This document shows, one piece after another, positions 3,991 to 26,742 of a stretch of DNA of 64,000 nt. A model generated the notes under the pieces. The model worked only from the letters and a program-made list of their open reading frames with translations, did not search any database and was not told the DNA's origin. Made by a program: the position numbers and the translations under genes. This DNA comes from an uncultured Acidimicrobiaceae bacterium (GTDB taxonomy: Bacteria > Actinomycetota > Acidimicrobiia > Spongiisociales > UBA5794), in contig CAZDIQ010000001.1 of assembly GCA_964505525.1 (NCBI GenBank), positions 5,544-69,543 on the forward strand, read 5' to 3'. Positions within the stretch are counted from its first letter, which is position 1. The number at the start of each line of letters is the position of its first letter.

Positions 3991-6900
3991 CAGTCGACCA
4001 ACTCCACTTCCATGTACCGGTAATGGCGTCCCTGGTTGCCGTAACTGTCGCCCGGCGTGATGTGATCAGAGATCATCGTCACTCGATACTTGCTGTTCGC
4101 GGGCATGATCGTCTCCGACTCGTGCGTGTAGGACACCAATGATGGCACCCGCCGCGAATCGGTGAGCTTCACGATGACACGACGGTTGCCATGATCGGAG
4201 AACGACTCGGCGATGTTGAGGTCAACCGACCATGACCCGAACCCCTTGTCGACGTAGACGTCGCCGACCTTCAAGTCCAATTCCTGCATCGTCGAACCCG
4301 AACCGGAACCCTTGCCCCGATACATCTGCCGGGGAGCCGGTGTCGCCGCAGGCCCCTTGTACGCCGACTTCATGTCGGCGACCTTCTTGGTCACAGCAGG
4401 GCCGTGACTCTCGCCGCGTTTCATCGTGCCGTTCATCGGCCCGTACCCGGACCCGCCATACGAGTCGATGGCATACCGCTGATCCGTCGTCAGCTTCGCT
4501 GATTGAGCCGACTGACGTTGCGAATGGTGACCCTTACCGACGTCCTCGCCCTTCAACGGTCCGGCAGCCTTCACCGAGTTCATGAACGACTCGCGCGCGG
4601 CGCCCCCGGTGTAGGTGTGGACCTCGTGCGCTCCAGCCGGACCGGACGTCTTCGCGCCCTTCAAGTTCTGGCCCTTCGTGTACGCCGCCTTCTGCCCGGA
4701 CGTCCACGAATCCCACTCCGGAGGCTTCGGAGTTTCGAACTTGTTCGGCTGCTTCGGGTTGTTCTTCTTCGTCCACGCCGCCTTCTGACCCGGAGACATC
4801 GACGACCAGTTCGCTGGCTTACCGACCGCGCCCGGCGCGGCGACAACCGGCACAGCCGTCGGCTTCGCCGGGAACCCGGAGGCCACCCCGTTCTGCATCT
4901 TCGCCGTCGCCAGATGCGAACGAGGGATCTGTTCGTCCTGATAACCGGACGCTTTCAAAGCAGAGACGTTCGCCTGATAGTCGGCCTCATGAAACTTGGC
5001 AAGCGACGCCCGTTCTTCCGGGGTGTGACTCGCCTTGACCTGATCGACGGACTTGCCGGAGTGGTGAGCGATCAGAGCGGCCCGCTTCTCATCCGACATG
5101 GCGTCGATCTGGTCATCGGTGAACATGACCCGAGCCCCCGTCGGGTTCGGGCCACCCGTCGGTCGACGTTCCCCCGTCTCACGCAACACGGCACGACGAG
5201 ACTCCCTCGGCCCGGCCGCGTGCCCGTCGTTGTAGCCCAACTGTTCGTTGAGCACCTTGCGGTCAGCGATGTGCTGATCGTTCATCGCGCGCATGGCGTC
5301 GCGACGCTCGTCCGGAGTTGACGGCGTCAGCTTCGGAGCGTTCTTCGCCAGGTAGGCGTCGACCGTCGCGTCCGACGCCCCGTCCACGTCCGGCTTGTCC
5401 AACGTCCTACCACCGTCGATCTTCGAGGAGATGTGGAACTGCTTCATCTCCTCCAATTCGGCGGCCTTCGCCAGCTTCTCCTGTTCGGCGTCGTACGCCG
5501 CCTGCTTCGCCGCGGCAGCCATAGCAGCGTTCTTCTTCTTCGTGGCGGCCGCCTTCTGCCCCGGCGTCATCGGAGACATGTCCATCTCCAACTGGCCGTT
5601 GCACTGTGCGCCTTTGCACCACTTCCCGGTCGGGTCGCGAGGCACCGCGGCAGCCGACGCGGTCACCGCCTCGATCCAGCCACCACAGTCCGGGCACATC
5701 ATCGACGCCGACGCGACCAACGGATCATCCAAGTCGTAGATGTGATCCGGGTCAACGACCTCACCGCCGACGATCCACTGGTCATACGCACCGAAGAACG
5801 GCGACACCCGCCGCGTCGCGAGGAGCCCCTGGACGGGCTGATCGAAGACGTCCAAGTCCGGGTCGTCCCAGCCAAGTGGGAACGCCACCACTTCGTCGTC
5901 GATCCGGTCAGTCGCCTCGGCCTCCGTGAGCGCGGCGAACCGGACACGAATCACCGACAGGCCAGCAGCCTCCCAGGACGGCCGTACCGGATACGGCTTC
6001 TCCCCGCGATGCTTGTTGCAGCCCGAGCATGACGGGATCAGGTTCGGGAACGACTTGATTCCACCGTACGATCCGCCTTCGTTCAACGTCAGGATCTTGT
6101 CCTGCTCCATCGACGCGTGACCGCCGCGTCCCTTCGGGGACGTCTTGATCCCGCAGTGAGTGCACGGCACATACCCGCGCTTGTTACCGCCGTACTCGTC
6201 GAACAAGGCTTCGCCGCGGGCGCGGCGTGTCGCCGCCGAACCACGGTTGTCGCCACCCGCCCGGCCCTTACCTTCCTTCGCTTTCTGGGCCTGCTCCTTA
6301 TTGTGGGCGATCTTCTCCGCTGACGGCTGCGGCACATCGCGGGCCTTCTGATTCGACAGGGCCTGCGTCTCGGCTAGCTCGGCTTCCGACGCGAACCATT
6401 CGGCCGGGGCCGACACACGAGCCTGCGGCGACTTCTTCGCGAACTCGGCCGCGTCCATCGTCTCCAACATCTGGCCTTCGTTGCACTGTGCGCCTTTGCA
6501 CCACTTCCCGGTCTGGTCGCGTGGCACCGCAGCGATCCCGGCAGCGAACTCCGACGGCACTTCTGGCAGGCCGCACCGGGCACATACCGAAACGGTCGAA
6601 GCGATGAGGACCTCGCCTGGCAGTGAGATGGGCTGAATGGTGTCTGAATCGACCGGTATGCCGTTCACGACGTACTGCGTGTAGTCCAGGTCATCGACAT
6701 AGTTGACGGTGAGAGGACCGACGAGAGTGGTCAACCGTGGCAGGTCGTCACGGGTGAGAGCGAAGTCGCCTCCGCCGATCATGTCCCAGCCGTAAGCCCG
6801 AGCCGACACGGTCTGACCGTCGACCCATCCGGCAGCGGCCACGAGCCCGCTAGCAGCCCGGAAACAGGACGTGCACGACGGCAGCAGATTCCCGGCAGCG

Positions 6901-8228
6901 AGCGACCCTCCCGCCGACCACGGCACGATCGGTTCCGGGACGATCATCGCCATCCCGGCCGTCGGGTCATCAGTCAGCTTCAACCCGCAATGCACACACG
7001 GCACGAAGCCACGGTCGTTCCCCCCGAACTCGGCGTACAGGTCCGAACGAGCCCGGTTCCGGGCAGTGACCGACGGTGCCCGCGTCGACCCGGACAACTC
7101 GACCCGGCCAGCACGGCCCCGCTTGTACCGGGCACGCTTCTGAGCGGCACCGAACACGGCCCGCGGCGAATAACCCTGCGCGGTGAGAACCGTGTCCGAG
7201 CCGCGCATCGTCGCTCGTAGCTGCTGGATCAGCTGACCACGAGTCATCGAATGACGACCGACAATCCCTTCACCGCGGGCGTAGGCGAGCAAGGTCGAAC
7301 GGTTCATCTGATCGAACCGGTCCGGGCAGTCCGGGCCTCCCGCCAACCCTTGCAGGCAGAGGGCGCGCAGCACCGCGGCTTGCAGTTCGCCACGGTTCAT
7401 CGTCGACCGGCCGTCGATCGACAAGGTTTGCGCCTTCGCTGTCAGTTCGGCCTTCGTCGCGCCGATCACGCGGCGGGCCTCGGAGCCTTCGACGTAGCCA
7501 AGCTCGCACCGGCAGTTCACCCTCAACTCGAACGGCAGCAGCGGGTCGCCGGGGTAGCGGGCCTGGTAGCCGCCGACTGTGAACGTCGACCCGAACGGGA
7601 CCGTTTCCTGGTCGGCTGCGGCATGCTCGAACCTGACCCGGATATCTCGTTGCGTGATCCAACGCAACGCCGCGGGCTGCGCGTCCTGCATCCCTTCGAA
7701 CAGGCCGCCGTTCGCTGCGCCCTGCAACTCGGTGCGAGCCACCTGATCGGCGATCGCGTCAGTGAACGGCCCGTCCGTCGTCAGTCCCTCGCGGACCGAG
7801 GCAGCATCCCATGCCAGCCCGGACTGTTCACGAGCAGCGATCCATTGATCGAGTCGCAACCGGATCGACGGGGCATAGTCGATCAGGCCAAGCAGTTCCG
7901 ACGCGGCATGACCTACCCGCAAACCGAGCACACCGAGCACACCGAACGTGAGCACCCCGGCCATCAGACCGTCCAAGGTGGCGTCGCCCATCTCGTCGGA
8001 GATGTGCTCGGTGATGATCTCCTCCCACTCGTCGTCGGTGATCAGCTGCTCGTCGTTCGCTGCGGCCGTGAGCGTGCCATGCCGGGCAGCGATCCGCGGG
8101 GCCACCAGGTCCGCGGCAGCCTGGTAGGCGCGCCGGAACGCTTCGAGGCCGACCAGCCATGTCTCGTCGTCGAGCAGCTGGACTGGTTCGGAGTCGACCG
8201 CTTCGGCCAAGTCCATCGCCACGGTCAC
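3990..8228 (-). CDS. MuF-like minor capsid protein / polymorphic toxin with C-terminal ADP-ribosyltransferase (exoenzyme R-S-E type) domain
   Basis: 1412-aa ORF immediately downstream of portal. 'ELRVNCRCELGYV' matches the MuF/SPP1 gp7 CRC signature. Two Cys-rich 'YVPCxHCG...NLxPSCxxC' modules. C-terminal ~200 aa carry 'YRG' (Arg), 'GFGSWS' (STS-like) and 'THESETI' (ExE), the ordered catalytic triad of C3/Vip2-type ARTs. Repeated 'VPRDxTGKWCKGAQCN' and 'PGQKAA(A/W/Y)TKK' motifs. Confidence 0.65.
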   Translation of the reverse strand: MTVAMDLAEAVDSEPVQLLDDETWLVGLEAFRRAYQAAADLVAPRIAARHGTLTAAANDEQLITDDEWEEIITEHISDEMGDATLDGLMAGVLTFGVLGVLGLRVGHAASELLGLIDYAPSIRLRLDQWIAAREQSGLAWDAASVREGLTTDGPFTDAIADQVARTELQGAANGGLFEGMQDAQPAALRWITQRDIRVRFEHAAADQETVPFGSTFTVGGYQARYPGDPLLPFELRVNCRCELGYVEGSEARRVIGATKAELTAKAQTLSIDGRSTMNRGELQAAVLRALCLQGLAGGPDCPDRFDQMNRSTLLAYARGEGIVGRHSMTRGQLIQQLRATMRGSDTVLTAQGYSPRAVFGAAQKRARYKRGRAGRVELSGSTRAPSVTARNRARSDLYAEFGGNDRGFVPCVHCGLKLTDDPTAGMAMIVPEPIVPWSAGGSLAAGNLLPSCTSCFRAASGLVAAAGWVDGQTVSARAYGWDMIGGGDFALTRDDLPRLTTLVGPLTVNYVDDLDYTQYVVNGIPVDSDTIQPISLPGEVLIASTVSVCARCGLPEVPSEFAAGIAAVPRDQTGKWCKGAQCNEGQMLETMDAAEFAKKSPQARVSAPAEWFASEAELAETQALSNQKARDVPQPSAEKIAHNKEQAQKAKEGKGRAGGDNRGSAATRRARGEALFDEYGGNKRGYVPCTHCGIKTSPKGRGGHASMEQDKILTLNEGGSYGGIKSFPNLIPSCSGCNKHRGEKPYPVRPSWEAAGLSVIRVRFAALTEAEATDRIDDEVVAFPLGWDDPDLDVFDQPVQGLLATRRVSPFFGAYDQWIVGGEVVDPDHIYDLDDPLVASASMMCPDCGGWIEAVTASAAAVPRDPTGKWCKGAQCNGQLEMDMSPMTPGQKAAATKKKNAAMAAAAKQAAYDAEQEKLAKAAELEEMKQFHISSKIDGGRTLDKPDVDGASDATVDAYLAKNAPKLTPSTPDERRDAMRAMNDQHIADRKVLNEQLGYNDGHAAGPRESRRAVLRETGERRPTGGPNPTGARVMFTDDQIDAMSDEKRAALIAHHSGKSVDQVKASHTPEERASLAKFHEADYQANVSALKASGYQDEQIPRSHLATAKMQNGVASGFPAKPTAVPVVAAPGAVGKPANWSSMSPGQKAAWTKKNNPKQPNKFETPKPPEWDSWTSGQKAAYTKGQNLKGAKTSGPAGAHEVHTYTGGAARESFMNSVKAAGPLKGEDVGKGHHSQRQSAQSAKLTTDQRYAIDSYGGSGYGPMNGTMKRGESHGPAVTKKVADMKSAYKGPAATPAPRQMYRGKGSGSGSTMQELDLKVGDVYVDKGFGSWSVDLNIAESFSDHGNRRVIVKLTDSRRVPSLVSYTHESETIMPANSKYRVTMISDHITPGDSYGNQGRHYRYMEVELVD

Positions 8229-10312
8229 ACTCCGACAGGAGCGAGGACAGCCTGCTCGACGATCCCCGCGACCATTGCCTGCGGGACGCGCAGCCCGTTG
8301 ACCGGACGGATATCACGCAACAGGTTGTCTTCGGCGTACTGCTGCATGTCCTCGGCCAGCCGGAACGCTGCGAACGATGCCCGGTCAGCAGCGTCGCGCG
8401 GTTCGAACCCGACTCCTTCCAGATAGTCGGACATCCAGGCCCGAGTCTGAATGGACAGTTCATCCCACGCGTCCTTCAACAGCACCTTCGGCGTCAGGGA
8501 GAACTCGGTCAACTCGCCAGCGGTGACCATCGACATGACCTGCGTCGCACGGACGTGCTTCACCCGGTCACGCAGGATCGGGTTCTTCGTCTTCGCCAGA
8601 TTCACGATCCGGTTCCCGGCGCGTTCCATCGCCCGGCCGAGAGCGGCGTCAGCGGCAGTCGTCAACCGTTCAACCATCATCGACGCGACCACAGCCTCAT
8701 CAACGTTCGCCGGTTCCTCCGAACCGGTAGCAGGCACAGTCTCATCGGGTGCCACCGGATCGTTCTCCGTCGTCTCGTTGTCGAGCGGGGTGCCGACCTG
8801 GCCGATCTGCTCCGCGTCGACGTCCTCCATGCCAGAGATCAACGGCAGCAACTTCGCGTACACCGCTGGCTGCGTCGACACCAGCTGCCACAGACGACGC
8901 TGACGGATCGTGTCCTTCGACGCCAGGTCGGCCTTGCTGAACCCGTTGGCCGTGAGAATCGCCTCGTCCGACAGCCAGTCAGCAAGGTCACGGGCCGACT
9001 TCGCTTCGTCATTCCGGGCGATGACCGGCGACGGATCAAACTCAACCTTGAACCCGGCGGCCTCCTCCTCAGACATGCCCTCGAACGCCATCAGCATCGG
9101 ACGCAGATACGAGTTCGTGATGAAGTCGGCGATCAGCTGCCCGATCGGCTGGATGTGCTTGACGATGAACTCGGCGTCGATGTTCGCTGCGGTCCAATGA
9201 TTCGCCGTCGACTTGCCGGACACGATCTCCGGAGGGGCGTCCAAGCCTGCCGCCAACCGGCCGAGCGCCTCTTGACGGAGCGACTGCAACGACAAGGCAT
9301 CCAGGTCGCGGGCCAGCACGATGATCTCAATCCCGGAGCCGCCCTCGCGGCGTGGCCCGGTGATCGCCAACGGCATTACCCGTGACGCCGACGTCGGGTC
9401 GAGCAGCGGGGCCGTCATGTGTTCGAACAGTTCGTCGACGAAGTCCGGTTCGCCGTCCTCGACGTCAGGGTCCGAGTCGTCGAGCGGCGTCGCGCCCATC
9501 ACCTGCAAGTCGTCCGGGATGTAGATGAGGTTCGCCGGGATACGCGACTTAGCGATGGCGTCGACCACCTGTGTGAGCGTGACGATCTCCTGCAAGATGG
9601 GCAGAACCCGGCGAACCTCAGAGTCAGCCAGATCCGAGTAACGCGGCGACGACCGCCAGATACGAGCCGTGTACGACTCGTCGTCCATCGGGACGGCCTC
9701 TGTGAAGTTCGCCCGCTTCCGCATCAACTTGCCTTCGGCGTCAACGTAGACCTCGTCGACCGACAGGAACTCCCACACCAAGTCCTGGTTCTCGTCGTTC
9801 GTGCCGCACAGATGCGCCTCACCCGTGCAGTACAAGTTCCAGGCGCAGCGGCGCACAAGGTCTTCCATGCCGCCCTGCGGGCCGACGAACGCCCGCATCA
9901 CGTTCGACGGCCGGTCGTCGTAGTCGTCGTCGGTTTCGTCCTTGTCGTCGATGGCCGGGTCGTTCGCCAGCCAGCTGGCCTGTTCCTTCGACCACTTCCG
10001 GACCGGGAACGAGCACAACGACACAGTGTTCGCCTGCAAGTTCAGCACCGCCCCGAGTTCCCCGACCTCGATCGCGAAGTCCATCGACTTCTGCTGCCAC
10101 GTCCGGTCGGTCTTCGACATGAGCCGACGCCGCGAACGGATGACCCGATCCTCGTCGCTGATCTTGCGGAGCGCCGACGACGACACTTTCGGGTTCCGGG
10201 ACGGTTGCTGCATCGCGAACTCGACCGGCTTCGTGGAGAACAGACGCTTCTTGCCCTCATCCAACGACACAGGCTTCTTCGGTTGACGCGCCATCGGCGT
10301 CACGCTACTCAA
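8225..10312 (-). CDS. portal protein
   Basis: 695-aa acidic protein directly upstream of the MuF gene; size, position and composition typical of portal proteins. No motif-level proof. Confidence 0.5.
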   Translation of the reverse strand: MSSVTPMARQPKKPVSLDEGKKRLFSTKPVEFAMQQPSRNPKVSSSALRKISDEDRVIRSRRRLMSKTDRTWQQKSMDFAIEVGELGAVLNLQANTVSLCSFPVRKWSKEQASWLANDPAIDDKDETDDDYDDRPSNVMRAFVGPQGGMEDLVRRCAWNLYCTGEAHLCGTNDENQDLVWEFLSVDEVYVDAEGKLMRKRANFTEAVPMDDESYTARIWRSSPRYSDLADSEVRRVLPILQEIVTLTQVVDAIAKSRIPANLIYIPDDLQVMGATPLDDSDPDVEDGEPDFVDELFEHMTAPLLDPTSASRVMPLAITGPRREGGSGIEIIVLARDLDALSLQSLRQEALGRLAAGLDAPPEIVSGKSTANHWTAANIDAEFIVKHIQPIGQLIADFITNSYLRPMLMAFEGMSEEEAAGFKVEFDPSPVIARNDEAKSARDLADWLSDEAILTANGFSKADLASKDTIRQRRLWQLVSTQPAVYAKLLPLISGMEDVDAEQIGQVGTPLDNETTENDPVAPDETVPATGSEEPANVDEAVVASMMVERLTTAADAALGRAMERAGNRIVNLAKTKNPILRDRVKHVRATQVMSMVTAGELTEFSLTPKVLLKDAWDELSIQTRAWMSDYLEGVGFEPRDAADRASFAAFRLAEDMQQYAEDNLLRDIRPVNGLRVPQAMVAGIVEQAVLAPVGV

Positions 10313-16783: not shown

Positions 16784-17839
16784 TCAGTTCGGGCACCGGA
16801 CAGGCATCTGCAACAGAGTCCAGCCGGGGGCAGAGGGGTGGATCAGGACGGGCTTCAACTCGTCGAACACGGTGACCGTCACCGTGTCAGCGTCAGCCTC
16901 GGCCAGTACCTGACGGAGCAGTTTCGGGTTCAACGACACGGTCGGAACCTCCCGGTCAGTCTCAACGGGGATACCGGACTTCGATCCGGCGACGTCGCGC
17001 ATCGTGACCACCAGTTCGTCGTCAACGACAACGAACCTGGCCGACGCCCCTCCGGCCAGTTCCAGCTTGCCGAGACGGGCAGCGAGTTGACGACGGTCGA
17101 CCGTGAACGACGAACCGTACCCGGTCGGGATCAAGGCCTGCCAACTCGGGAACTCGCCGATCGTCTGACGGACCACAACAGACGTCGTGGCGTTGAAGAA
17201 GTGCACGGTGTCATTCGTTGCGAAGTCGACGTTCAGGTCGTCCCCGTCGAACATGGCGGCCACGATCTGGACACCGTCGCTGGGCAGCAGGACCGGCCTG
17301 CCGAAGTCGACGACATCGTCAACAACCATCAGACGGTACGAGTCCGTCGCGACCGCACGACCGGCGTCGAACAGCACCGACGTCAAGACAGCACGAGTCG
17401 GGTCAATCGACGCGGCCGTCGCGGCGAGACGGGCAGCCCGAGCGAACCCGGTCGAATCGACCTCAATGGGATCGTTCCGGTCCGGGATGACATACACCGG
17501 GTTCTCCATGAACGACAGCGAGTATTCCAAGTCGCCTGCGACCATGACGACCTCGTCGGACGTCACGTCGAGCGAGACACGTCCGGCGTGAGCCATCGCC
17601 CTCGCGAACCGCTTCAACAGCCCGGCGTCGACTGTGATCGTCGTCGCCTTCTTCCCGGCGACCGGGATCTTCGCCGACGCGGTCGTCATGTAGTCGGTCG
17701 CCGTGACCGTAACCCGTTGGTCACGGAACGCGAGAGTGATCGAACCGGCAGACGCCCTGCCGACAAGTGTCACCGCCTTAGCGAACGCGGTTGCGTCGGT
17801 AGTGAACGTGGCCGTCTTCACGGCGAGAGAAGTAGACAT
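16784..17839 (-). CDS. dnaN: DNA polymerase III beta sliding clamp (DnaN) homolog
   Basis: 'DSYRLMVV', 'FPSWQALIP', 'LNPKLLRQVL', 'KPVLIHP' correspond to conserved DnaN blocks. Start set at ATG (MSTSLAV) with AAAGGA SD. Confidence 0.65.
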   Translation of the reverse strand: MSTSLAVKTATFTTDATAFAKAVTLVGRASAGSITLAFRDQRVTVTATDYMTTASAKIPVAGKKATTITVDAGLLKRFARAMAHAGRVSLDVTSDEVVMVAGDLEYSLSFMENPVYVIPDRNDPIEVDSTGFARAARLAATAASIDPTRAVLTSVLFDAGRAVATDSYRLMVVDDVVDFGRPVLLPSDGVQIVAAMFDGDDLNVDFATNDTVHFFNATTSVVVRQTIGEFPSWQALIPTGYGSSFTVDRRQLAARLGKLELAGGASARFVVVDDELVVTMRDVAGSKSGIPVETDREVPTVSLNPKLLRQVLAEADADTVTVTVFDELKPVLIHPSAPGWTLLQMPVRCPN

Positions 17840-17853
17840 GGGTTGGGGTCCTT

Positions 17854-18657
17854 TCATTGCATGGATTGAGCTTCGGTGAGAAGCGGACCGTCGTAACCGA
17901 GTTCGGTCAACGTGTCCGACATTCTTCGAGTGAGATCGAGCAGCGCCGCAACGGATCGCTTCTGTCCGGTCATGGCTTTCGCCTTGTCGATCCACGGTTC
18001 AGGTTGCAACGCGAACCCGAACTGCATCTCGGCAGACTTGGCCTGTTCGGCGGCGATCTCGTCGACCAGTTTCCGGAAACGGACGGCCCCCATCCGAGGG
18101 TTCGCCAGCCACGCTTTCAAGCCGACCGACTGGTGGGCCGAGTCGAGTCGACGTAGCTCCAACGCTGCGGCAGGAGTGACCGCCTCAGCGTCGATCGCGG
18201 CTTGAACGTCGGAACCGAGTTCGAGCAGGTCGAGTCGCCACCGGACACGGAACTCGGCGACCCCCGCGATCGCAGCGATCTGTTCGACGGTCTGCCCGGC
18301 GTCGCGTCGTTTGCCGTAGGCGCGGGCTTCCTCCATGATCGACAAGTTCACGCGGCCGGTGTTCTCGGCGAGCATCAAATCGGCCTCGGCCTGTTCGTCG
18401 ACGTCGCGGATCGTCGCTTCGATCGTTACCCGGCCGAGCAGCTGATAGGCGCGCCAGCGGCGTTCCCCGGCGATCAGCCGGAAGCGGCCGTCGTCGAGTG
18501 GGCGCACCGCGATCGGTTCGGCGAGTCCGACCGCGGCGATCGACGCGGCCAACTGTTCGAGTTCGGCCAGGTCGAACACCTTCCGGTCGTTCGTGCCGGT
18601 GACGATCTGGTCGACCGGGATCGTGTCGACGTTCACTGGACGGTCACCATTCGGCAC
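17854..18657 (-). CDS. parB: ParB-like partition/nuclease-domain protein
   Basis: 'FRLIAGERRWRA' matches the ParB-N GERRxRA box, plus 'NLSIMEEARAY' in an HTH region. Confidence 0.6.
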   Translation of the reverse strand: MPNGDRPVNVDTIPVDQIVTGTNDRKVFDLAELEQLAASIAAVGLAEPIAVRPLDDGRFRLIAGERRWRAYQLLGRVTIEATIRDVDEQAEADLMLAENTGRVNLSIMEEARAYGKRRDAGQTVEQIAAIAGVAEFRVRWRLDLLELGSDVQAAIDAEAVTPAAALELRRLDSAHQSVGLKAWLANPRMGAVRFRKLVDEIAAEQAKSAEMQFGFALQPEPWIDKAKAMTGQKRSVAALLDLTRRMSDTLTELGYDGPLLTEAQSMQ

Positions 18658-19865: not shown

Positions 19866-20135
19866 TCAGACGGACTTCCGTCGACGTGCAGCCACCGTAG
19901 CCGCGGCCCCGACACCGAGCACCAACGCCCCGGCCAGAGAGACGATCCGGGTCGCGTCAGAACCCGACGTCGCCAACTCGGCGGGAACGGTCGTCGGGGG
20001 AACAGTCGTGGTCGACACGGACGTCGCCGGGCATTCCGGGGACGGAACGTACGACTCGCAGTCGGCAGCAGAAACCGTCGGGGCCGCGACGAACGTGGCC
20101 ACCGCGGTGAGCAGGATCAGGATGCGGTCCATCAC
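19866..20135 (-). CDS. small secreted protein with sortase-type (LAxTG-like) C-terminal sorting signal
   Basis: N-terminal signal peptide 'ILILLTAVATFVAAPTVSA'; Thr/Pro-rich middle; C-terminal 'LATSG' + hydrophobic stretch + 'RRRKSV'. Confidence 0.45.
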   Translation of the reverse strand: MMDRILILLTAVATFVAAPTVSAADCESYVPSPECPATSVSTTTVPPTTVPAELATSGSDATRIVSLAGALVLGVGAAATVAARRRKSV

Positions 20136-20968
20136 AGCAATGTTGCCTGACCCACCGACACGGCCGTCCCGGCGATCGAATGACGGCCAGTCCAGCGGCC
20201 GACGACATCTTCTGTCCGGTCATCCGGATGCACCAACGGGTACTCCTCGATCAGCTGACCGTCCAACGTCATGCCCATCTCGGTGCGTGGGGCGGCGGAC
20301 TGTTTGAAGTAGAACGCGATCTCGGCAGCCGCGCATCGGTCGCGGACGTCGCGTGCCCAGTCATGATCCATCGGCCGGTAGCCGGGGCCGGACTCGCCGC
20401 CGACGATCACCCACTGGATGTTCGTCAGGTCAAGCGACGGGACCGGGCCGAGCATCGGCTCCACACTGAGGAAGTGAACGACCGCGGGGATCGACGTCAG
20501 GCTCTTGGTCCGGAACGTGTACCGGTCGTTCTCGATCGACGTCCCAACCCAGATGTTCGCCGGGACTTGTTTGAGGCCGTTGCGTGCCAGCCAGCCTTCC
20601 GAGTCTTCGGTGCCGTTGAAGTACGCGGCCATCAGCTGCGGCCGTTTCGTCAACACAAGATAGTCATGCTGGACGCGGAGCATCTGAGCGAAGATCGTGT
20701 CGCGCTGCTCGTCGTTGAAGTCGACGTGGAACAGATCCGACATCGAGTTGACGAACACACGAGACGGGCCAGACTTGCGAAGGAACTTCGACGGCTCACC
20801 GATCTTGTTCTCTTTGTAGGTCGGCGTGAACCCGTTGGGGAACGACCCCTTCCCGAACTTCGTGGTGATCGTCTCGGCGTAACAGTTGTCGCAGCCAGGC
20901 GAGATCTTGTCACATCCCGTCGTCGGATTCCAGGTGTGCTCCGCCCAGCGGATGCGAGTGTCTTTCAT
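20132..20968 (-). CDS. phage Gp37/Gp68 family three-Cys-motif protein (DUF5131)
   Basis: 'TWNPTTGCDKISPGCDNCYAE' and 'VFVNSMSDLFH' are the family signatures. Confidence 0.7.
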   Translation of the reverse strand: MKDTRIRWAEHTWNPTTGCDKISPGCDNCYAETITTKFGKGSFPNGFTPTYKENKIGEPSKFLRKSGPSRVFVNSMSDLFHVDFNDEQRDTIFAQMLRVQHDYLVLTKRPQLMAAYFNGTEDSEGWLARNGLKQVPANIWVGTSIENDRYTFRTKSLTSIPAVVHFLSVEPMLGPVPSLDLTNIQWVIVGGESGPGYRPMDHDWARDVRDRCAAAEIAFYFKQSAAPRTEMGMTLDGQLIEEYPLVHPDDRTEDVVGRWTGRHSIAGTAVSVGQATLL

Positions 20969-20998
20969 GGACCAAGTGTAGCACCACGGGCGACAGCA

Positions 20999-21583
20999 TC
21001 ACGACGGAGTGAATCCTTCGGGAATGAGAAGCTCGTACCGTTTGACCATGCCACCGTGAGAGAAGAACAGCAGCCGCGACTTCCGGTAGCCAAGCTTGTA
21101 CAGCCACGCCTCCCACAACTCGTCGGCGATTGTCGTGATCAACGTGACCGGTGCACCCTTCGGCAACGTGATGCCCAAGTCTTTCAAGATGATGTGCGGG
21201 ACAGGTCCGAGCGCACGAGCGATCCGTGTTGTCAACACCGGGGTCGTCGGAGCCTTCGCTGCGACGGTATTCAACTGGGTCGTCGGCCAGCCGTAAGCGT
21301 CCAAGTCGATCAGGTCGAACTTCGACAAGTCGAGCGCAACAAGCAGGCGAGCGTTGTCGACCTTCAACGTCCCGGCCCCACGTTCCTTGTGATCCGACCG
21401 ATACAGCTTCACGTCCCAACCGTCCGGCAGCACCGCCCTCGTCATGTCCCACAGACGGCCGTGGCCGTGGAACGCGTCCAACACCCGGATCGGCCGCGGA
21501 GTTCCGAGCAGTTCGACCGCCTCAACTCGGAGCGCGACCTTCGACGCGATGTGATCGTTGTCGGTCAGAGTCTGTTCGGTCAT
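20999..21583 (-). CDS. three-Cys-motif partner protein (TcmP-like, methyltransferase fold)
   Basis: Immediately upstream of and co-oriented with Gp37/Gp68. 'VLDAFHGHG' (SAM motif I-like) and 'LIDLDAYGWP' (motif IV-like). Confidence 0.5.
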   Translation of the reverse strand: MTEQTLTDNDHIASKVALRVEAVELLGTPRPIRVLDAFHGHGRLWDMTRAVLPDGWDVKLYRSDHKERGAGTLKVDNARLLVALDLSKFDLIDLDAYGWPTTQLNTVAAKAPTTPVLTTRIARALGPVPHIILKDLGITLPKGAPVTLITTIADELWEAWLYKLGYRKSRLLFFSHGGMVKRYELLIPEGFTPS

Positions 21584-22161
21584 CAGTTCACCGTCGAGCG
21601 GACCGTCACGCCGTCGATGCCGTCCAACTGGTCGAGGATCTCCGACACCCGATCCCACTCGTCGAGGTCGACCGACACGAGCACATGGGCACGCTTCAAC
21701 GGTTTCAAGTCGACCGACTTCGGCTTCTCGGCTGGCTCGTCGTCGGCTTCGGGCAGCAGGTCAGCGATCACCGCCGACAACGAGTCCGACAAGGTGCCCT
21801 GATCGACAAGTTCGTTCAACAGGTCCGAGTTGATCTCGGCCATGCTTCCGATCGGGTCCATCAACGCCAGCATCTCATTCTCCTCAGCCTCCGACAGTTC
21901 CACCCAAGCAACCGGGATCGGACCGTCCTGTGCGAGCCCGACACGCATGTGGCCGTCCACGACCAAGCCTGTCGTCCGGTTCACGATGACCGGCGCGACC
22001 CAGCCGACATCATCCAGCACCGACGTCATCGCAGCCTTCTGCTGATCGCCGTGCACCCGCGGGTTCCGCGGGTTGGCTTCCAACTCCGACGCGGTGATCT
22101 CGCCGTACTCGACGATCCGATTCCGCCACTTGGCGTCAACCTTCGGTTTGCGTACTGCCAT
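21583..22161 (-). CDS. ParB/Srx-like nuclease-domain protein
   Basis: 'VVDGHMRVGLA' resembles the ParB-N DGHHR core; acidic C-terminus. Confidence 0.45.
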   Translation of the reverse strand: MAVRKPKVDAKWRNRIVEYGEITASELEANPRNPRVHGDQQKAAMTSVLDDVGWVAPVIVNRTTGLVVDGHMRVGLAQDGPIPVAWVELSEAEENEMLALMDPIGSMAEINSDLLNELVDQGTLSDSLSAVIADLLPEADDEPAEKPKSVDLKPLKRAHVLVSVDLDEWDRVSEILDQLDGIDGVTVRSTVN

Positions 22162-22945
22162 CGCCCCATCTCACTTCTCTCATGGCGGCCTCATCACCGG
22201 CCGCCGCCTTGTATCGCTCCGCCAACTCGTACTGCTCCTGATGCCGGTCATGCCCGTACGTCTGCGTCAACGGCTGAGGATGCCACAGATGCCAGCAGGC
22301 GCCTTCAAGCCGGGTGTGCGGCCCCCACAGGGTGTCGACGGACAGACCGAACGACGTGTCGTCAGAACCCCACTTCGCGAACCGTTCGTCGTAGCCGGTC
22401 ACCGTCGCGAACGCGCCGCGCGGTACGACGACCATCCCGGACCAGGCGACGTTCTCGCCCACCCATTCGCAGTCCTCATCCGGCCACCGGATCGGCCTCG
22501 ACGGATGATCGCGCAGGACCCGTTCCGAAGCTCGACGGTTCAGCTTGACGTAGAAGCGGGGCATCACCCACGACGCCGCCCCGGACAGGACGAGGTCGGC
22601 GGCATGAACAATCCAATCCGGGTCGAACACGGTGTCCGCGTCGGCGATGACGAACACGTCACGCGCCGCCCTCGACGCCGCAAGGTTGATCGCCTTCGGA
22701 TGATTGAAGTCACCAGGATCTTGCCGACGCCCACCGCCGTCATCGGCGACGATCACTTCGACCGACGGCAACAGCGCCGCCCATCGCCGCGCCAGCCAAC
22801 GCCACGACGTAGTGCGATGCCCGCGATCCGGACGGTACGGGACCAGCACCGAGACATGAGGCTGGCTCACGCTACGCCCTTCGCCTGATTCCACCATTCC
22901 GGATGAGGACGGTCCGGGGAGTTCCGCCAGAACGTCGCCGCGCAC
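22136..22945 (-). CDS. family-2 glycosyltransferase
   Basis: 'VIVADDGGG', 'IADADTV', 'GYDERFAKWGSDDTSF' are GT-A signatures. Confidence 0.6.
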   Translation of the reverse strand: MRGDVLAELPGPSSSGMVESGEGRSVSQPHVSVLVPYRPDRGHRTTSWRWLARRWAALLPSVEVIVADDGGGRRQDPGDFNHPKAINLAASRAARDVFVIADADTVFDPDWIVHAADLVLSGAASWVMPRFYVKLNRRASERVLRDHPSRPIRWPDEDCEWVGENVAWSGMVVVPRGAFATVTGYDERFAKWGSDDTSFGLSVDTLWGPHTRLEGACWHLWHPQPLTQTYGHDRHQEQYELAERYKAAAGDEAAMREVRWGDGSTQTEG

Positions 22946-23457
22946 GACGGACAGAGCGGTCCGTGCCAGCCGCGGGCGTTCGTCTCATTCCCACAGTCCG
23001 GGGTCATGCACACCGTCGCCCACGGATCGAAACCCGCAGGCAGCACGATGTGAGCGTTCCGTTCGACGATCCACTGACACATGCCGACCAACTGTGCATG
23101 GATCAACGTCGACGACGGTGCATGCTTCCACGCCTTGAACAGAGCCTTCGTGTGCTTCCGGCACAGGCCGATCGTCTCGGCCCCGTTCTCGCAGTCCGAC
23201 ACGAGACACAACACCACAGGCGGCTCGCCGGAGAGAGCCCGGTCGACGACCTGCTCAATCGAGGACTCATCGACGAACAGGCCCGAAACGAGTTCGTGCA
23301 TGTTCCAGGTATGCCGGTTCGAGATCTTGCCGAGATAGCCCTTGCCGATGACCGGATCACCCCGCTTCAACCGGCGACGGGTCGTCGCTTCGGTCAAGCC
23401 AAGGAGATGGGCGACGGTGTCAATCCCAACGATGCGAGGCGGTGAGACAATCGGCAT
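22867..23457 (-). CDS. putative DNA-binding protein (N-terminal HTH, C-terminal Cys-rich)
   Basis: 'VAHLLGLTEATTRRRLKRG' HTH-like; 8 Cys in C-terminal half. Confidence 0.4.
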   Translation of the reverse strand: MPIVSPPRIVGIDTVAHLLGLTEATTRRRLKRGDPVIGKGYLGKISNRHTWNMHELVSGLFVDESSIEQVVDRALSGEPPVVLCLVSDCENGAETIGLCRKHTKALFKAWKHAPSSTLIHAQLVGMCQWIVERNAHIVLPAGFDPWATVCMTPDCGNETNARGWHGPLCPSCAATFWRNSPDRPHPEWWNQAKGVA

Positions 23458-23460
23458 AGC

Positions 23461-24516
23461 TCACAGAGGTTCTTCGCCGTTGTCGTCTTCGAGGTCGTCG
23501 AGGTCGTCGAACAACGGGCCGTCCAAGATGCAGACGTACTTGTCGTCTTCGAGAGCGATGGCGTTCAACTCAACCAGTTGATCGAGCAGCTGCTGGGCAC
23601 GTTCCGCCGACAAGTCCAAGTCGTCGGTGATGACCTGGACGGTCAAATGTCCGACCGTCGCGCCGTGGGCGTACACCTTCGCCAACTGGGCCTTCTCGGC
23701 TTCGGCCAGCATCCCATCATCGGATGCGTCCTCCGCGCCGAGGACCGAAGCAAGGAAGTCGTCGATCACGTCGCCGTAGTCCGATTCGATTATCAGGTCG
23801 ATGCCTTCCATCGACGGCATCGCGTTCACCGTCTCCTCCGACAGCTTCACCGGCATCACCAGGCCCGAGACGTTCACGTCGCCGGTCGCGTTGATCGAGA
23901 TCTTCGCGACGCCGTTCTGGCCGCCCAACGCGAACTCGATCGAAGCCTTGTCCCACAGGGCCGACAGCTTCCCGAGACGGAGGATGCCGTCCGCTCCGAA
24001 CCCGATCAGGCCGGTCGGCTTCCAGTCATGCCCGAACCACAACGCCCGCCACTCTGGGAACGCCCCCTCGAAGCGGGGAGTTTCGATCCGTTCGTCATAG
24101 GCGTTGTTCATCTGGAACCACACCGACGCCTGCGTCATCCCTTCGAACGAGCCCTGCGTCGACGCGTCGGACATCTCGCCGAAGCCGAGCGTGATCGACA
24201 CCGGAGTGTCCTCGCCGTCCTGTTTCGTCATCTGCTGCGCGTACTTCATCAGCCCCAGGACCCGTTGATCCGGGTCCGAGCAGATGGCAACCTCGTCGGG
24301 CAGGACGTCCGCTCCGGGCTCGGGGTCGTCGTAGCCGAGGACCGGAACCCACGCCTTCAACAGCAGATAGCCGTCCGTCGCGACCAGCCGGATGCCTTCG
24401 CCGTACATCTCGATCAGCGTCGACCGGTACAACGCCGGACGCTTCTCCTCGTTGCCGCAAGCGAGAGCTACCGAGTGCCAGGAACGGCCAAGCACCCAAG
24501 CGTTGAACTGCATCAT
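23461..24516 (-). CDS. second beta-clamp (DnaN)-like protein
   Basis: 'GIRLVATDGYLLLKAWV' matches the DnaN 'ATDGHRL' block. Start at tandem ATG with GAAGGAGA SD; first gene leftward from divergent promoter region. Confidence 0.45.
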   Translation of the reverse strand: MMQFNAWVLGRSWHSVALACGNEEKRPALYRSTLIEMYGEGIRLVATDGYLLLKAWVPVLGYDDPEPGADVLPDEVAICSDPDQRVLGLMKYAQQMTKQDGEDTPVSITLGFGEMSDASTQGSFEGMTQASVWFQMNNAYDERIETPRFEGAFPEWRALWFGHDWKPTGLIGFGADGILRLGKLSALWDKASIEFALGGQNGVAKISINATGDVNVSGLVMPVKLSEETVNAMPSMEGIDLIIESDYGDVIDDFLASVLGAEDASDDGMLAEAEKAQLAKVYAHGATVGHLTVQVITDDLDLSAERAQQLLDQLVELNAIALEDDKYVCILDGPLFDDLDDLEDDNGEEPL

Positions 24517-24604
24517 GTCTCCTTCGTCGGATTCCGGTCGGACGACAGGACCGTAGCACGAGTTGCGACATGTAGCATCCGGTGCTGCTACCGTCGCGTC
24601 GGTC
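24517..24604. promoter_or_regulatory. divergent promoter region between clamp-like operon and terS/terL with two GTAGCA palindromic sites
   Basis: GTAGCA-cgagt-TGCGAC (24553..24569) and GTAGCA-N8-TGCTAC (24572..24591). Confidence 0.5.
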
Positions 24605-25216
24605 ATGGCGAACAGGAAACGGAAGACGAAGGCGGAGCTTCAAGCCGAGGCCAAAGCCGCCGAGCAGGAACGGGTCGTGGTCTGGGCCGAACAGTTCGGG
24701 GCACCGATCGCGATTCTGCAAGGCTGGAACATCGACGACGGGACATGGCATCCTCAGTCACCGGTCGGGCTCATGTTGCAGGCCATCGCCTCACGAGGGG
24801 CGCATATCACGACCGCCGCACAACTCGGAGGGCTGCGGAACATCATGCAGCTGATCGCCCGTGGTCACGAGTACATGGTCGACGCCGCCGAAGACCGGGC
24901 CTACATCCCGATCGACGTGCGTGTGTTCGTCGACCTGGTCGTTCAGATTGAGCAGGCCGAAGCGTTGATCGAAGTCGAACTCGTGAAGACGGTCCGGGAC
25001 GGGGCGAAGACCGACCCGAAGATCGCGTTGGCGATGCTGTCGCGACGGTTCGGTCAACGCTGGCGTGAACAGCAGGCCATCTTCACCGCCGACGAACACG
25101 ACGAACGTGACGCCGCCGTGTCGAAGGTGCTCGCGAACCCGGACGCGGCGTTGGCGCTCGCCGAGATCGCCCACGAAGTCGAAGACACGGTGCAGGAGCA
25201 CGAACGCGGTAGCTGA
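24605..25216 (+). CDS. terS: terminase small subunit (putative)
   Basis: Basic N-terminus 'MANRKRKTKAEL', about 200 aa, stop overlaps terL start (TGATG). Confidence 0.5.
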   Translation: MANRKRKTKAELQAEAKAAEQERVVVWAEQFGAPIAILQGWNIDDGTWHPQSPVGLMLQAIASRGAHITTAAQLGGLRNIMQLIARGHEYMVDAAEDRAYIPIDVRVFVDLVVQIEQAEALIEVELVKTVRDGAKTDPKIALAMLSRRFGQRWREQQAIFTADEHDERDAAVSKVLANPDAALALAEIAHEVEDTVQEHERGS

Positions 25217-26742
25217 TGCGTACCCACGACCTGGCCTCACGGGCGTGGAAGGCAATGCCCGACACGATGGGCCGCCGACTGTCCGACGGCACCTACACGG
25301 CACCGGAGCACGTCAAGCTCATCTCATGGCTGCTGACGTTGAACGCGAACCGGTACGTCCCGCGGCTCGGGATCTCGATGCCTCCGGGTTCAGGGAAGTC
25401 GGAGGTCATCGACTACTACGACTCGATCCACCTGTTGGAACACGACCCGCGACGAAGGATCATTCTCGCCTCCTACTCCGGTGAACTGGCCGAGGAACAA
25501 GGCAAACGGGTCCGCAACACGATCGAGTCGAACTATGACCTGCTCAACCTCCGGCTCATGCAAGACAGCCGGGCCGCTGACCGGTGGCGTACCACGATGG
25601 GCGGCGGGATGTGGACCGTCGGCATCGGCGGTTCGATCACCGGTCGCCGCGCGTCGAACTTGAAGATCGACGACCCGCACAAGAACTTCGCCGAAGCCAT
25701 GTCGATCAAGAACCAGGTCGACACCTGGAACTGGTACGGGTCCGTGGCCCGCACCCGCATGCTGCCCCGCTCGTCGCTGGCAGTCGTCCAAACCCGGTGG
25801 GCTGAGGGTGACCTGATCGGCCGGTTGAAGTCGAACGACGAAGGCAAAGACGACTGGCTGTTCGTGTCGCTCCCGGCGATCGCCGAGAAAGACGAGACGA
25901 TCGTCACCGTCCTCGGCGACTGGTATTACAAGCTCACCGCGATGGGCGTCACCCGGTTCCCGGTATGGGAACGGGAGAAAGGTCAAGCCCTGTGGCCCGA
26001 GTTGGAACCGGGGGTGCCGTGGTTCGACGAAACGGAGTACGCCGAGATCCGCGCCGACGTCGGCGAAGTCGTCTGGGCTGGGCTGTACCAGCAACGCCCG
26101 TCGCCCGCCGAGGGCAACCTGTTCAAACGATACGACTGGCGGCGTCTCGACGGGCCGATGCCAGCAGGCACCTACACGTACGTTCGGCGTTGGGACTTGG
26201 CGTCAGTCGAAGGGGGCGGTGACTGGACGGCCGGGATGCTCATGGCGATCAATCACGAGACACGGCACATCTACATCATCGACGCCCGCCGTGCCCGGCT
26301 CGGCCCGACCGAAGTCGAAGCGTTCGTGCACATGACCGCTGTGGAGGACCGCGACAACTACGGCACCGTTCTCACCCGCGTTGAACGCGAACCGGGATCG
26401 TCCGGCAAGAACGTCGAGACGAACTACATGGCGAACGTCCTCGCCGGGTTCCCCGCCAAGTTCCTGCCGTCAACCGGAGCGAAGGAGGTTCGAGCCCTGC
26501 CGTTGTCCGGTCAGGTAGGTGCCCGCAACGTGTACCTGTGCCGACGGGTCCGAGCGAACGGGGAGACGACGATCCCGGACTGGTGGGAGTGGCTGATCGA
26601 GGAAGCGGCCGTGTTCCCGAACGGCACACACGACGACCTCATCGACGTCGCCTCACTCGCCTACGTCGATCTGATCGAGGAACAACCGCGCCGGTCACGG
26701 ACGAAGGTCGGGTCGTCGGCCCGCAAGCAACTCGGGTTCTGA
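25216..26742 (+). CDS. terL: terminase large subunit
   Basis: Walker A 'GISMPPGSGKS', Walker B 'LKIDDPH', 'LYQQRP', C-terminal nuclease 'THDDLIDVASLA'. Confidence 0.9.
   Translation: MRTHDLASRAWKAMPDTMGRRLSDGTYTAPEHVKLISWLLTLNANRYVPRLGISMPPGSGKSEVIDYYDSIHLLEHDPRRRIILASYSGELAEEQGKRVRNTIESNYDLLNLRLMQDSRAADRWRTTMGGGMWTVGIGGSITGRRASNLKIDDPHKNFAEAMSIKNQVDTWNWYGSVARTRMLPRSSLAVVQTRWAEGDLIGRLKSNDEGKDDWLFVSLPAIAEKDETIVTVLGDWYYKLTAMGVTRFPVWEREKGQALWPELEPGVPWFDETEYAEIRADVGEVVWAGLYQQRPSPAEGNLFKRYDWRRLDGPMPAGTYTYVRRWDLASVEGGGDWTAGMLMAINHETRHIYIIDARRARLGPTEVEAFVHMTAVEDRDNYGTVLTRVEREPGSSGKNVETNYMANVLAGFPAKFLPSTGAKEVRALPLSGQVGARNVYLCRRVRANGETTIPDWWEWLIEEAAVFPNGTHDDLIDVASLAYVDLIEEQPRRSRTKVGSSARKQLGF

Follow-up and report, generated by a model that had tools for sequence, protein, structure and literature searches.

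Six consecutive genes at positions 20132-24516 of a 64,000-nucleotide stretch of DNA from an uncultured Acidimicrobiaceae bacterium (assembly GCA_964505525.1, contig CAZDIQ010000001.1; we call the whole stretch the window) raise the question of what their products might do together. Read in the direction of transcription, on the minus strand, they encode a clamp-like protein, a Cys-rich protein, a glycosyltransferase (GT), a ParB-like protein, a protein with a methyltransferase fold (the partner) and a member of the DUF5131, or Gp37/Gp68, family of radical S-adenosylmethionine (SAM) enzymes. A first-pass annotation of the same DNA had taken all six for one operon and suggested a nucleic-acid modification pathway, possibly yielding a glycosylated or otherwise hypermodified base, or an anti-restriction function. 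We find that three of the genes, those for the ParB-like protein, the partner and the radical SAM enzyme, form a trio that is repeatedly co-inherited, and the indirect evidence all points to nucleic acid, most likely DNA, so that proposal is partly supported. Our preferred reading, to which we give a probability of roughly 45%, is that the trio carries out a ParB-assisted, SAM-dependent modification of DNA bases after replication and before packaging. The genes for the GT, the Cys-rich protein and the clamp-like protein share the transcription unit and lie outside the conserved module.

All six open reading frames (ORFs) are present where they had been annotated, and because homologues keep the gene order on other contigs we take them to be real genes. 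Along the unit, a gap of 3 nucleotides separates the clamp-like from the Cys-rich gene, a GTGA overlap at 22870 joins the Cys-rich gene to the GT gene, the GT and ParB-like genes overlap by 26 nucleotides, the ParB-like gene and the partner gene share an ATGA start/stop overlap at 21583, and 30 nucleotides lie between the partner gene and DUF5131; these are junctions of the operon type. The start of the clamp-like gene, ATG 24516 with an AAGGAG ribosome-binding site ahead of it, agrees with the end of the operon as first delimited. The window has a GC content of 64% and is coded mostly on the minus strand. Since it encodes terminase, portal, head-morphogenesis, tail, helicase, DnaB-like, ParB and DnaN-like proteins, it is part of a large tailed-phage genome. 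A 100,320-bp NCBI contig and Logan assemblies encode identical proteins. There is no cultured close relative in a collection of 50,697 phage records, given that a near-identity DNA search (megablast) returned a single 90-bp stretch of DUF5131 and the closest large terminase subunit (TerL) is 34% identical.

Which of the six genes belong together? We compared three related phages, whose partners are 73% (L091), 61% (L093) and about 53% (L004, a 121-kb contig with a TerL about 66% identical to that of the window) identical to the window's. All three share the order terL, terS and then, on the opposite strand, the clamp-like gene, the Cys-rich gene, the ParB-like gene, a variable slot and the partner gene; DUF5131 follows the partner gene where the contig extends that far (L004, and L094 for the phage of L093). 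The GT gene is absent from the operon in all three phages. The slot between the ParB-like and partner genes is empty in L091, holds a gene of 116 amino acids in L004 and a Methyltransf_11 gene in L093. This last gene (L093 8892-9467, also L094 888-1463) encodes an extra class-I methyltransferase (Methyltransf_11, E = 1.6e-14).

To distant loci the conservation extends for the trio. A search of 1.84 billion representative proteins with a profile of the partner (clusters at 50% identity, E <= 1e-3) gave a family of 1030 clusters at 50% identity, nearly all of them 175-230 amino acids long and stand-alone. Confirmed viral-contig loci carrying the partner number 170, of which 80 were fetched and their neighbourhoods scored with iterated local hidden Markov models (HMMs); the non-redundant set comprises 52 phage and metagenome loci with partner identity below 80%. 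A ParB-like ORF directly precedes the partner gene on the same strand at every one of the 49 loci having at least 500 nucleotides of upstream sequence, and at most of these the two genes overlap by 1-41 nucleotides. A radical SAM gene, either DUF5131 or related to PA0069 and spore photoproduct lyase (SPL), adjoins the partner gene in 40/52 loci (29 co-directional, 11 convergent); it is found elsewhere in the locus in 2/52 and is absent from 10/52. The 52 loci span a GC range of 30-72%, and the TerL families differ among the phages that carry the trio. The trio can also be read from existing annotation in the metagenome-derived Dulem virus 36 (lemur faeces), where the three genes are labelled ParB, hypothetical and 'PA0069 family radical SAM protein'.

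The other three genes behave differently. Iterated HMM searches found the clamp-like, Cys-rich and GT genes in none of the 80+ distant loci, and the clamp-like and Cys-rich genes just in close relatives of the L004 type, which rules these two out as general components of the module. The conserved unit is therefore the pair of ParB-like protein and partner, usually with a radical SAM enzyme; the clamp-like and Cys-rich genes are lineage-specific, and the GT gene is specific to the phage of the window. The comparison of gene neighbourhoods, which the first-pass annotation had named as a check, thus upholds the co-inheritance of the trio and speaks against a single pathway of six genes.

A clade of loci (L013, L016-L018, L025, L031, L038 and L039; for example L017 2945-7924) has the ParB-like and partner genes and no radical SAM gene within 6 kb. 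Upstream of the pair these loci carry Amidoligase_2, GATase_6 and WhiB genes, and in three of them a C5 DNA methylase gene lies directly downstream.

We also scanned the 149 nearest neighbours of the module at the 52 loci. The commonest annotated neighbour is the terminase large subunit, from several unrelated families, and by blast clustering a terminase-type gene lies 0.5-2.7 kb downstream and co-directional in about 26/52 loci. Further neighbours are terS, WhiB (8), GATase (5), C5 DNA methylases (3), N6/N4 DNA methylases (3) and a SAM synthetase (1).

What do the three proteins of the module look like? The ParB-like protein had been called a ParB-domain protein, and this call is correct. 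It matches phrog_498, the ParB part of a DNA methyltransferase, at E = 9e-17, and seven ParB-type PHROG families match it in total (E = 9e-17 to 6e-4). Its residues 4-121 are 54% identical to the N-terminal ParB domain of Stenotrophomonas and Xanthomonas phage DNA methylases, and it aligns with the N-terminal region of the PADLOC model MTase_II (E = 1e-8). Across 47 non-redundant homologues, conservation covers the motif NPR...G69xxR72 as well as a C-terminal segment; together with the PHROG profiles, this GxxR nucleotide-binding motif places the protein among ParB N-domains, and nucleoside triphosphate (NTP) binding is predicted from it. The helix-turn-helix (HTH) domain HTH_ParB (PF17762) is not found in the protein. 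A second ParB-type gene of the window, transcribed in the same direction at 17854-18657, encodes a full ParB with both domains.

ParB domains of this subtype are otherwise known from fusions to DNA methyltransferases (phrog_498; ParB_N with N6_N4_Mtase), which likewise join the domain to a SAM-dependent methyltransferase fold and usually lie near the genome end and the terminase. The fusions are single proteins, whereas the window has separate, translationally coupled ones; they carry N6_N4_Mtase, whereas the methyltransferase-fold protein of the window is Trm1-like and usually has a radical SAM enzyme added. There is precedent for ParB-like proteins as helpers of DNA-modifying enzymes. DpdB is a ParB-like ATPase needed by DpdA to insert 7-deazaguanine into DNA. 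A phage ParB-like protein is needed for a T-dioxygenase (5mYOX176/ParB176) to act on double-stranded DNA (PMC13229309). ParB176 is also a short ParB with nucleotide-binding and C-terminal domains and no DNA-binding domain, encoded beside a post-replicative DNA-modifying enzyme (PMC13229309); its enzyme is an Fe(II)/2-oxoglutarate dioxygenase, whereas the window has a methyltransferase fold and a radical SAM enzyme. The likeness that we note is one of architecture.

The partner has no match in Pfam, PHROG or NCBIfam. Its AlphaFold model (predicted local distance difference test, pLDDT, of 88.5) is a class-I methyltransferase fold, and Foldseek gave 222 PDB matches at E <= 1e-3, the best 50 of which are nearly all SAM-dependent methyltransferases, Trm1 among them. 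Trm1 (3axs, 2dul) has the best TM-scores among the top PDB matches (E about 3e-6); a fold search of BFVD returned generic methyltransferases alone, with TM-scores up to 0.54. Among 100 diverse members of the family, K15, R19, D93 and D95 are invariant, and motif I (VLDxFxGxG), N77, G98, P100 and Q103 are nearly so. The motifs VLDAFHGHG and DLDAYGWP of the window's partner are thus conserved, and SAM binding is predicted from them; the protein has no cysteine. Its DLDAYGxP motif, with D93 and D95, aligns with the catalytic IDLDPFGSP of Trm1. A motif IV of the type acidic-x-aromatic-Gly is characteristic of methyltransferases that act on exocyclic amines. Given that the motifs are intact in the clade that has no radical SAM gene, the partner probably has an activity of its own. 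The family has no above-threshold match in Pfam or NCBIfam, and the members tested have no PHROG or PADLOC match, so the family is unmodelled.

The third gene encodes the radical SAM enzyme. Its product matches Pfam PF07505 at E = 2e-76 and 257.1 bits (cut-off 28.9) over profile positions 2-243 of 243, which confirms the earlier assignment to the Gp37/Gp68 family, and within the radical SAM superfamily DUF5131 forms a subgroup (PMC9477430). The three-cysteine motif C19-x6-C26-x2-C29, in 'TGCDKISPGCDNCYA', predicts binding of a [4Fe-4S] cluster; the translation also contains a GGESG motif, and there is a weak match to NCBIfam radical SAM mobile pair protein A. Across the module two types of radical SAM enzyme occur, DUF5131 and a type starting 'IYEPxGxAREYSPLAxNxYxGCxHxCxYCY'. 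All 19 tested proteins of the second type match PA0069, Rv2578c and mobile pair protein B, with E down to 1e-26 and scores that fall far short of the cut-offs of these families. Within the superfamily, both types fall in the region that holds SPL (PMC9477430), and the matches of module enzymes to SPL itself are weak (best E = 2.5e-4). With SPL, PA0069, Rv2578c and the mobile pair proteins A and B they share a radical SAM clade in which SPL acts on DNA; they differ in scoring far below the cut-offs of these families, which, apart from SPL, have no known function. By sequence, no significant match to DUF5131 was found in the PDB, and a PA0069-like profile drew a generic radical SAM core match (E = 6.7e-5) beside spurious matches to nuclear receptors. 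In the literature searched we found no functional study of DUF5131, PF07505, COG4422, TcmP or radical SAM with ParB.

These features suggest how the trio might work. The ParB-like protein, with an NTP-binding N-domain, a small C-terminal domain and no HTH, would load or activate the enzymes on replicated phage double-stranded DNA, and translational coupling would fix its ratio to the partner. With SAM and a flipped-out target base bound, the partner would transfer a methyl group, or another group derived from SAM, and an exocyclic amine is the likeliest acceptor. The DUF5131 protein, as a [4Fe-4S]/SAM enzyme, would carry out a radical step at the same site, whether to build on that modification or to make one in parallel, and all of this would precede packaging of the DNA by the adjacent terminase. 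We infer the order and the chemistry of these steps, and likewise the substrate, from domain identities, folds, motifs and gene linkage. For DNA as the substrate we rely on several lines of evidence: the ParB-like protein is closest to ParB domains fused to phage DNA methylases; the radical SAM enzymes belong to the clade that contains SPL; and the neighbours of the module include C5 and N6/N4 DNA methylases, a SAM synthetase and terminase. A more specific proposal holds that the trio installs an undescribed hypermodification of a DNA base, the partner alkylating a site on which radical SAM chemistry then acts and the ParB-like protein serving as loader on double-stranded DNA; this we consider distinctly doubtful. 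An anti-restriction role, the other option of the first-pass annotation, would be plausible.

Several observations weigh against DNA modification by the trio. The evidence for any modification is indirect throughout. The ParB-like protein has no match to Pfam ParB_N (PF02195) at E = 0.01, although a distant homologue (L009) does match it at E = 9.7e-5, and in the 5mYOX system mutation of selected NTP-binding residues of ParB did not markedly impair T oxidation (PMC13229309). The nearest relatives of the partner in sequence and structure, Trm1 and RsmJ, act on RNA, and the radical SAM enzymes of the SPL-containing clade are either uncharacterised or, in the case of SPL, repair enzymes. In the 50,697 phage records, tblastn with three diverse partner sequences found the partner just in the metagenomic Dulem virus 36; DUF5131 is present in 179 phage records, the short partner in this one alone. 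Lastly, the TcmP and Gp37/Gp68 counterpart of the module is a defence candidate, located in prophage immunity regions or beside Hna, which suggests another function.

This counterpart leads to the first rival explanation, that the trio, as a pared-down phage form of the TcmP/Gp37-Gp68 pair, serves in conflict with competing phages or host immunity, for example by modifying or damaging foreign nucleic acid or a nucleotide pool, and leaves the phage's own genome unmarked. PADLOC lists TcmP as PDC-M30A and DUF5131 as PDC-M30B/PDC-M41B, where PDC stands for phage defence candidate. The window's DUF5131 matches PDC-M30B/PDC-M41B at E = 1e-72 (the B component of PDC-M30 at E = 3.6e-71), and its gene stands next to that of a methyltransferase-fold protein just as in the canonical pair. 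In Gordonia phage Angelique (L182 3474-5326), the genes for gp42 (DUF5131) and gp43 converge and overlap, with a tyrosine integrase on one side and an immunity repressor on the other; gp43 is annotated 'methyltransferase' and has an E of 5.5e-41 against the TcmP profile. A pair in this position is expressed from the prophage, which fits the label of defence candidate. In S. meliloti, the listed neighbour of TcmP (SMa2243) is the defence gene Hna (SMa2245).

Is the partner, then, a TcmP, as the first-pass annotation had it? We found otherwise. None of 23 family members matches the TcmP model (TIGR04474) even at E <= 10, and the partner, at 194 amino acids, is half the length of TcmP, which has about 365-400 amino acids with an extension at the C-terminus (365-397 in the examples compared). 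Canonical TcmP matches PDC-M30A at E = 1.5e-26 and the partner does not match it, so that component A of PDC-M30 is missing from the window. An hhalign comparison of the partner family (100 sequences) with 22 non-redundant TcmP sequences gave a local probability of 15% (E = 1.7e-3), and one with three TcmP sequences gave 26% over 32 columns. The former alignment is collinear over 175 columns, running through SAM motifs I and IV (DxFxGxG and D-x-[YWH]-G) in the N-terminal region of TcmP, and a remote common origin of the two families is possible.

Gene context separates the two more sharply. At 83 canonical TcmP loci of bacteria and plasmids, DUF5131 is adjacent in 76 (50 convergent, 26 co-directional), and neither a ParB-like gene nor the short partner occurs at any of them, compared with a ParB-like gene at 49/49 loci of the window type. 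Both architectures place a radical SAM gene beside one for a methyltransferase-fold protein, and co-directional as well as convergent, overlapping arrangements occur in both. In contrast, the radical SAM enzyme of the window-type module is often PA0069-like instead of DUF5131, and the module has terminase and structural genes for neighbours, in phages of many kinds, rather than lying in islands or immunity cassettes. Because canonical pairs lack the ParB-like gene and window-type loci always have it, we distinguish two architectures, of which the ParB-linked one seen here is undescribed in the literature searched. With the partner failing all TcmP and PADLOC models, and PDC reading as a label for candidates, we consider a role in conflict unlikely. 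As a side observation on DUF5131, gp67 (398 amino acids) of the cluster F Mycobacterium phage Melissauren88 (L002 4714-5910) carries a large insertion, its Pfam match being stretched over residues 42-392, and neither TcmP nor the short partner is annotated beside it.

Could the trio act on RNA instead? A Trm1-like N2-guanine methyltransferase and a radical SAM enzyme might remodel host or phage tRNA or rRNA, as Trm5 and TYW1 do in wyosine synthesis. The fold comparison, in which Trm1 stands out, fits this idea, and so do the weak family matches: the recurring NCBIfam matches among members are Trm1 models, 45/100 family members match Pfam TRM (PF02005) below threshold (best E = 6.5e-5), one member matches RsmJ, an N2-guanine rRNA methyltransferase, and three match TRM5/TYW2. 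All of these matches remain under the family thresholds, however; the window's own partner scores 13.4 bits against PF02005, where the gathering threshold is 27. Trm1 is about 370-390 amino acids long, and its C-terminal RNA-binding domains are missing from the partner. The window has no tRNA genes, and the partner invariably comes with a ParB-type domain like those found in fusions with DNA methylases, a context that points to DNA. For these reasons we regard RNA as an improbable substrate of the trio.

The position of the genes brings up a further alternative, that the trio is an accessory of packaging or repair, which helps the terminase, for example by marking or processing a pac/cos region, or repairs DNA lesions before packaging as SPL does. 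Terminase genes are the commonest neighbours even though the TerL families are unrelated, SPL and genes annotated 'DNA repair photolyase' fall in the radical SAM clade, and in the lineage of the window the operon starts at the region divergent from terS, which contains a conserved inverted repeat. This near-perfect 11-nucleotide repeat, GACGGTAGCAC...GTGCTACGGTC, occupies the intergenic region, and the 10-mer GTGCTACGGT is invariant across four related phages, the rest of the intergenic sequence having diverged. The window holds no second exact copy of the conserved motif, near-matches being at chance level; the repeat may be an operator or a pac/cos-related site. The first-pass annotation had the operon start at a divergent promoter shared with terS/terL. 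The divergent arrangement is real and is conserved in the related phages, but for a shared promoter the scan gave no support: no sigma-70-like consensus was found, such scans being uninformative at this high GC content. Ordinary phage DNA methylases also typically adjoin the terminase, so that this linkage is not peculiar to packaging factors. The 10/52 loci that have no radical SAM gene keep the ParB-like protein and the partner, so the core function cannot be repair by that enzyme. A methyltransferase fold has no obvious role in repair and the SPL matches are weak, so we think this explanation about as improbable as the one involving RNA.

The GT gene remains to be placed. The earlier call of a GT2/GT-A glycosyltransferase is right: the protein scores 26.5 bits against Pfam Glycos_transf_2 (cut-off 23.3), has the DxD-type motif 'IADADT' expected of GT-A family 2, matches Glyco_transf_7C in Pfam, which makes it beta-4-GalT-like, and matches phrog_1721 at E = 9e-21. 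Its full-length homologue gp144 of Phrappuccino, annotated 'galactosyl transferase', is 34% identical over 204 residues (E = 4e-24), and genes of this type sit in GT-GT-GT-methyltransferase cassettes in Phrappuccino (gp142-145) and prophiGD91-2 (gp73-80). The window has a lone GT, without companion GTs or a sugar O-methyltransferase, and the class-I methyltransferase of the cassettes is unrelated to the partner; the partner as a sugar O-methyltransferase of this kind is ruled out by an hhalign probability of 0.2%. GTs of the actinophage-cassette type have been linked to glycosylation of virion proteins. Following Freeman et al. 2023 (cited in PMC13313380), actinophage GT and methyltransferase genes, and with them these GalT-like enzymes, are taken as a sign of virion glycosylation.

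Some phages do encode GT-A enzymes that add sugars to 5-hydroxymethylcytosine (5hmC) in DNA, often beside ParB-like genes, and they accompany 5mYOX or thymidylate synthase (ThyS)-type enzymes (bioRxiv 10.1101/2023.12.21.572611). Neither a 5mYOX nor a ThyS-type gene was seen among the window proteins scanned, in a window that is not fully annotated; as no hydroxymethyl-making enzyme was seen and the nearest relatives are GalT-like cassette enzymes, we do not class the GT with the JGT-like DNA glycosyltransferases, GT-A enzymes whose acceptors are 5hmC and 5hmU. A six-gene pathway, in which the radical SAM enzyme and the methyltransferase make an acceptor on the base and the GT glycosylates it, has in its favour the translational coupling of the GT gene between the Cys-rich and ParB-like genes and the precedent just named, but because relatives lack the GT, the GT is of the cassette type and no 5mYOX/ThyS-type enzyme was seen, both this pathway and the glycosylated base that had been suggested are very unlikely.

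What is new here is the trio of ParB-like protein, short Trm1-like partner and radical SAM enzyme; DNA-modification genes associated with ParB, and TcmP/Gp37-Gp68 pairs, were already known. The trio is widespread in uncultured phages, and the family of the partner, missing from curated family libraries, is defined here as a methyltransferase-fold family of about 1000 clusters at 50% identity. The module is set apart from the look-alike bacterial TcmP/Gp37-Gp68 pair, a PADLOC defence candidate, and the idea of a glycosylated base is corrected in that the GT is a lineage-specific passenger. If the trio does modify DNA, a function would be assigned to the DUF5131/Gp37-Gp68 and PA0069-like radical SAM families, for which none is described in the literature searched, and the trio would be the second case of ParB-type accessory factors for DNA-modifying enzymes, after the ParB-dependent T-dioxygenases of 2026. 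On the more specific and doubtful proposal of a hypermodification, the pathway would be an oxygen-independent counterpart of those that combine a methyltransferase with TET/JBP dioxygenases, and uncultured phages from gut to soil would commonly carry the modification, made immediately ahead of packaging. The trio could also reveal new base chemistry, of relevance to the evasion of restriction and CRISPR and to enzymatic tools for labelling DNA.

The two remaining genes at the head of the unit had been annotated as encoding a Cys-rich DNA-binding protein and a clamp-like protein. The first is indeed Cys-rich, with 8 Cys in two zinc-type clusters (CxxxxC...CxxH/C), and is 47% identical to an ORF in the matching position of L004. 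That it binds DNA is suggested by an HTH-like N-terminal stretch and a weak match to an HNH family (phrog_5351, E = 7e-4). In the fold search of the PDB, the 50 best matches of the clamp-like protein are without exception beta sliding clamps (DnaN; E about 3e-7, TM-score about 0.41), in agreement with the earlier call. The AlphaFold model (pLDDT 74) has about two clamp-type domains in residues 1-220, an acidic linker and a C-terminal helical or winged-helix part. The protein matches no Pfam model, those of DNA_pol3_beta included, shares the motifs ATDGY and GxFPxWxxL with the DnaN-like gene product of the window, and belongs to a family of just 26 proteins, many of which carry a C-terminal FtsK_gamma domain; judging from the model, it is not a DnaN orthologue. 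The two clamp-type genes of the window, this one and the DnaN-like gene at 16784-17839, are transcribed in one direction. The coordinates of all features are listed in Table 1.

Table 1 Genes and intergenic region of the six-gene unit and its flanks (positions in the window).
Feature	Coordinates	Strand	Basis or remark
DUF5131 (Gp37/Gp68) radical SAM enzyme, 278 amino acids; core module gene 3	20132..20968	-	Pfam PF07505
Class-I methyltransferase-fold partner, 194 amino acids; core module gene 2	20999..21583	-	AlphaFold/Foldseek
ParB/Srx N-terminal-domain protein without HTH, 192 amino acids; core module gene 1	21583..22161	-	PHROG
GT-A (GT2 / beta-4-GalT-like) glycosyltransferase, 244 amino acids from GTG 22870	22136..22870	-	Pfam, PHROG
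Cys-rich protein, 196 amino acids	22867..23457	-	HTH-like N-terminus, two zinc-type clusters
Clamp-like protein, 351 amino acids	23461..24516	-	AlphaFold, PDB fold matches
Divergent intergenic region, clamp-like gene / terS	24517..24604		conserved inverted repeat
89-amino-acid ORF abutting the DUF5131 stop codon	19866..20135	-	translation, weak NCBIfam LAXTG/LAVTG matches

The transcription unit does not end at 20132, since the 89-amino-acid ORF abuts the stop codon of DUF5131; genes on the same strand continue from there to ParB, the DnaN-like gene, the helicase and the portal. Terminator-like sites were not above chance in our scan, which is uninformative for a sequence of high GC content. 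The 89-amino-acid ORF, whose counterpart is called as a gene in L003, encodes a signal peptide, a Thr/Pro-rich stretch, 'LATSG', a hydrophobic helix and an RRRK tail, a layout of the sortase-anchored surface protein type that is unusual in a phage. The packaging module is also laid out unusually: terS/terL (24605-26742, plus strand) are on the opposite strand, with about 14 kb of replication-type genes between them and the portal gene. An ORF of 1412 amino acids, listed with the packaging genes (3990-8228 and 8225-10312, both on the minus strand), mixes MuF-like head-morphogenesis and HNH-endonuclease regions.

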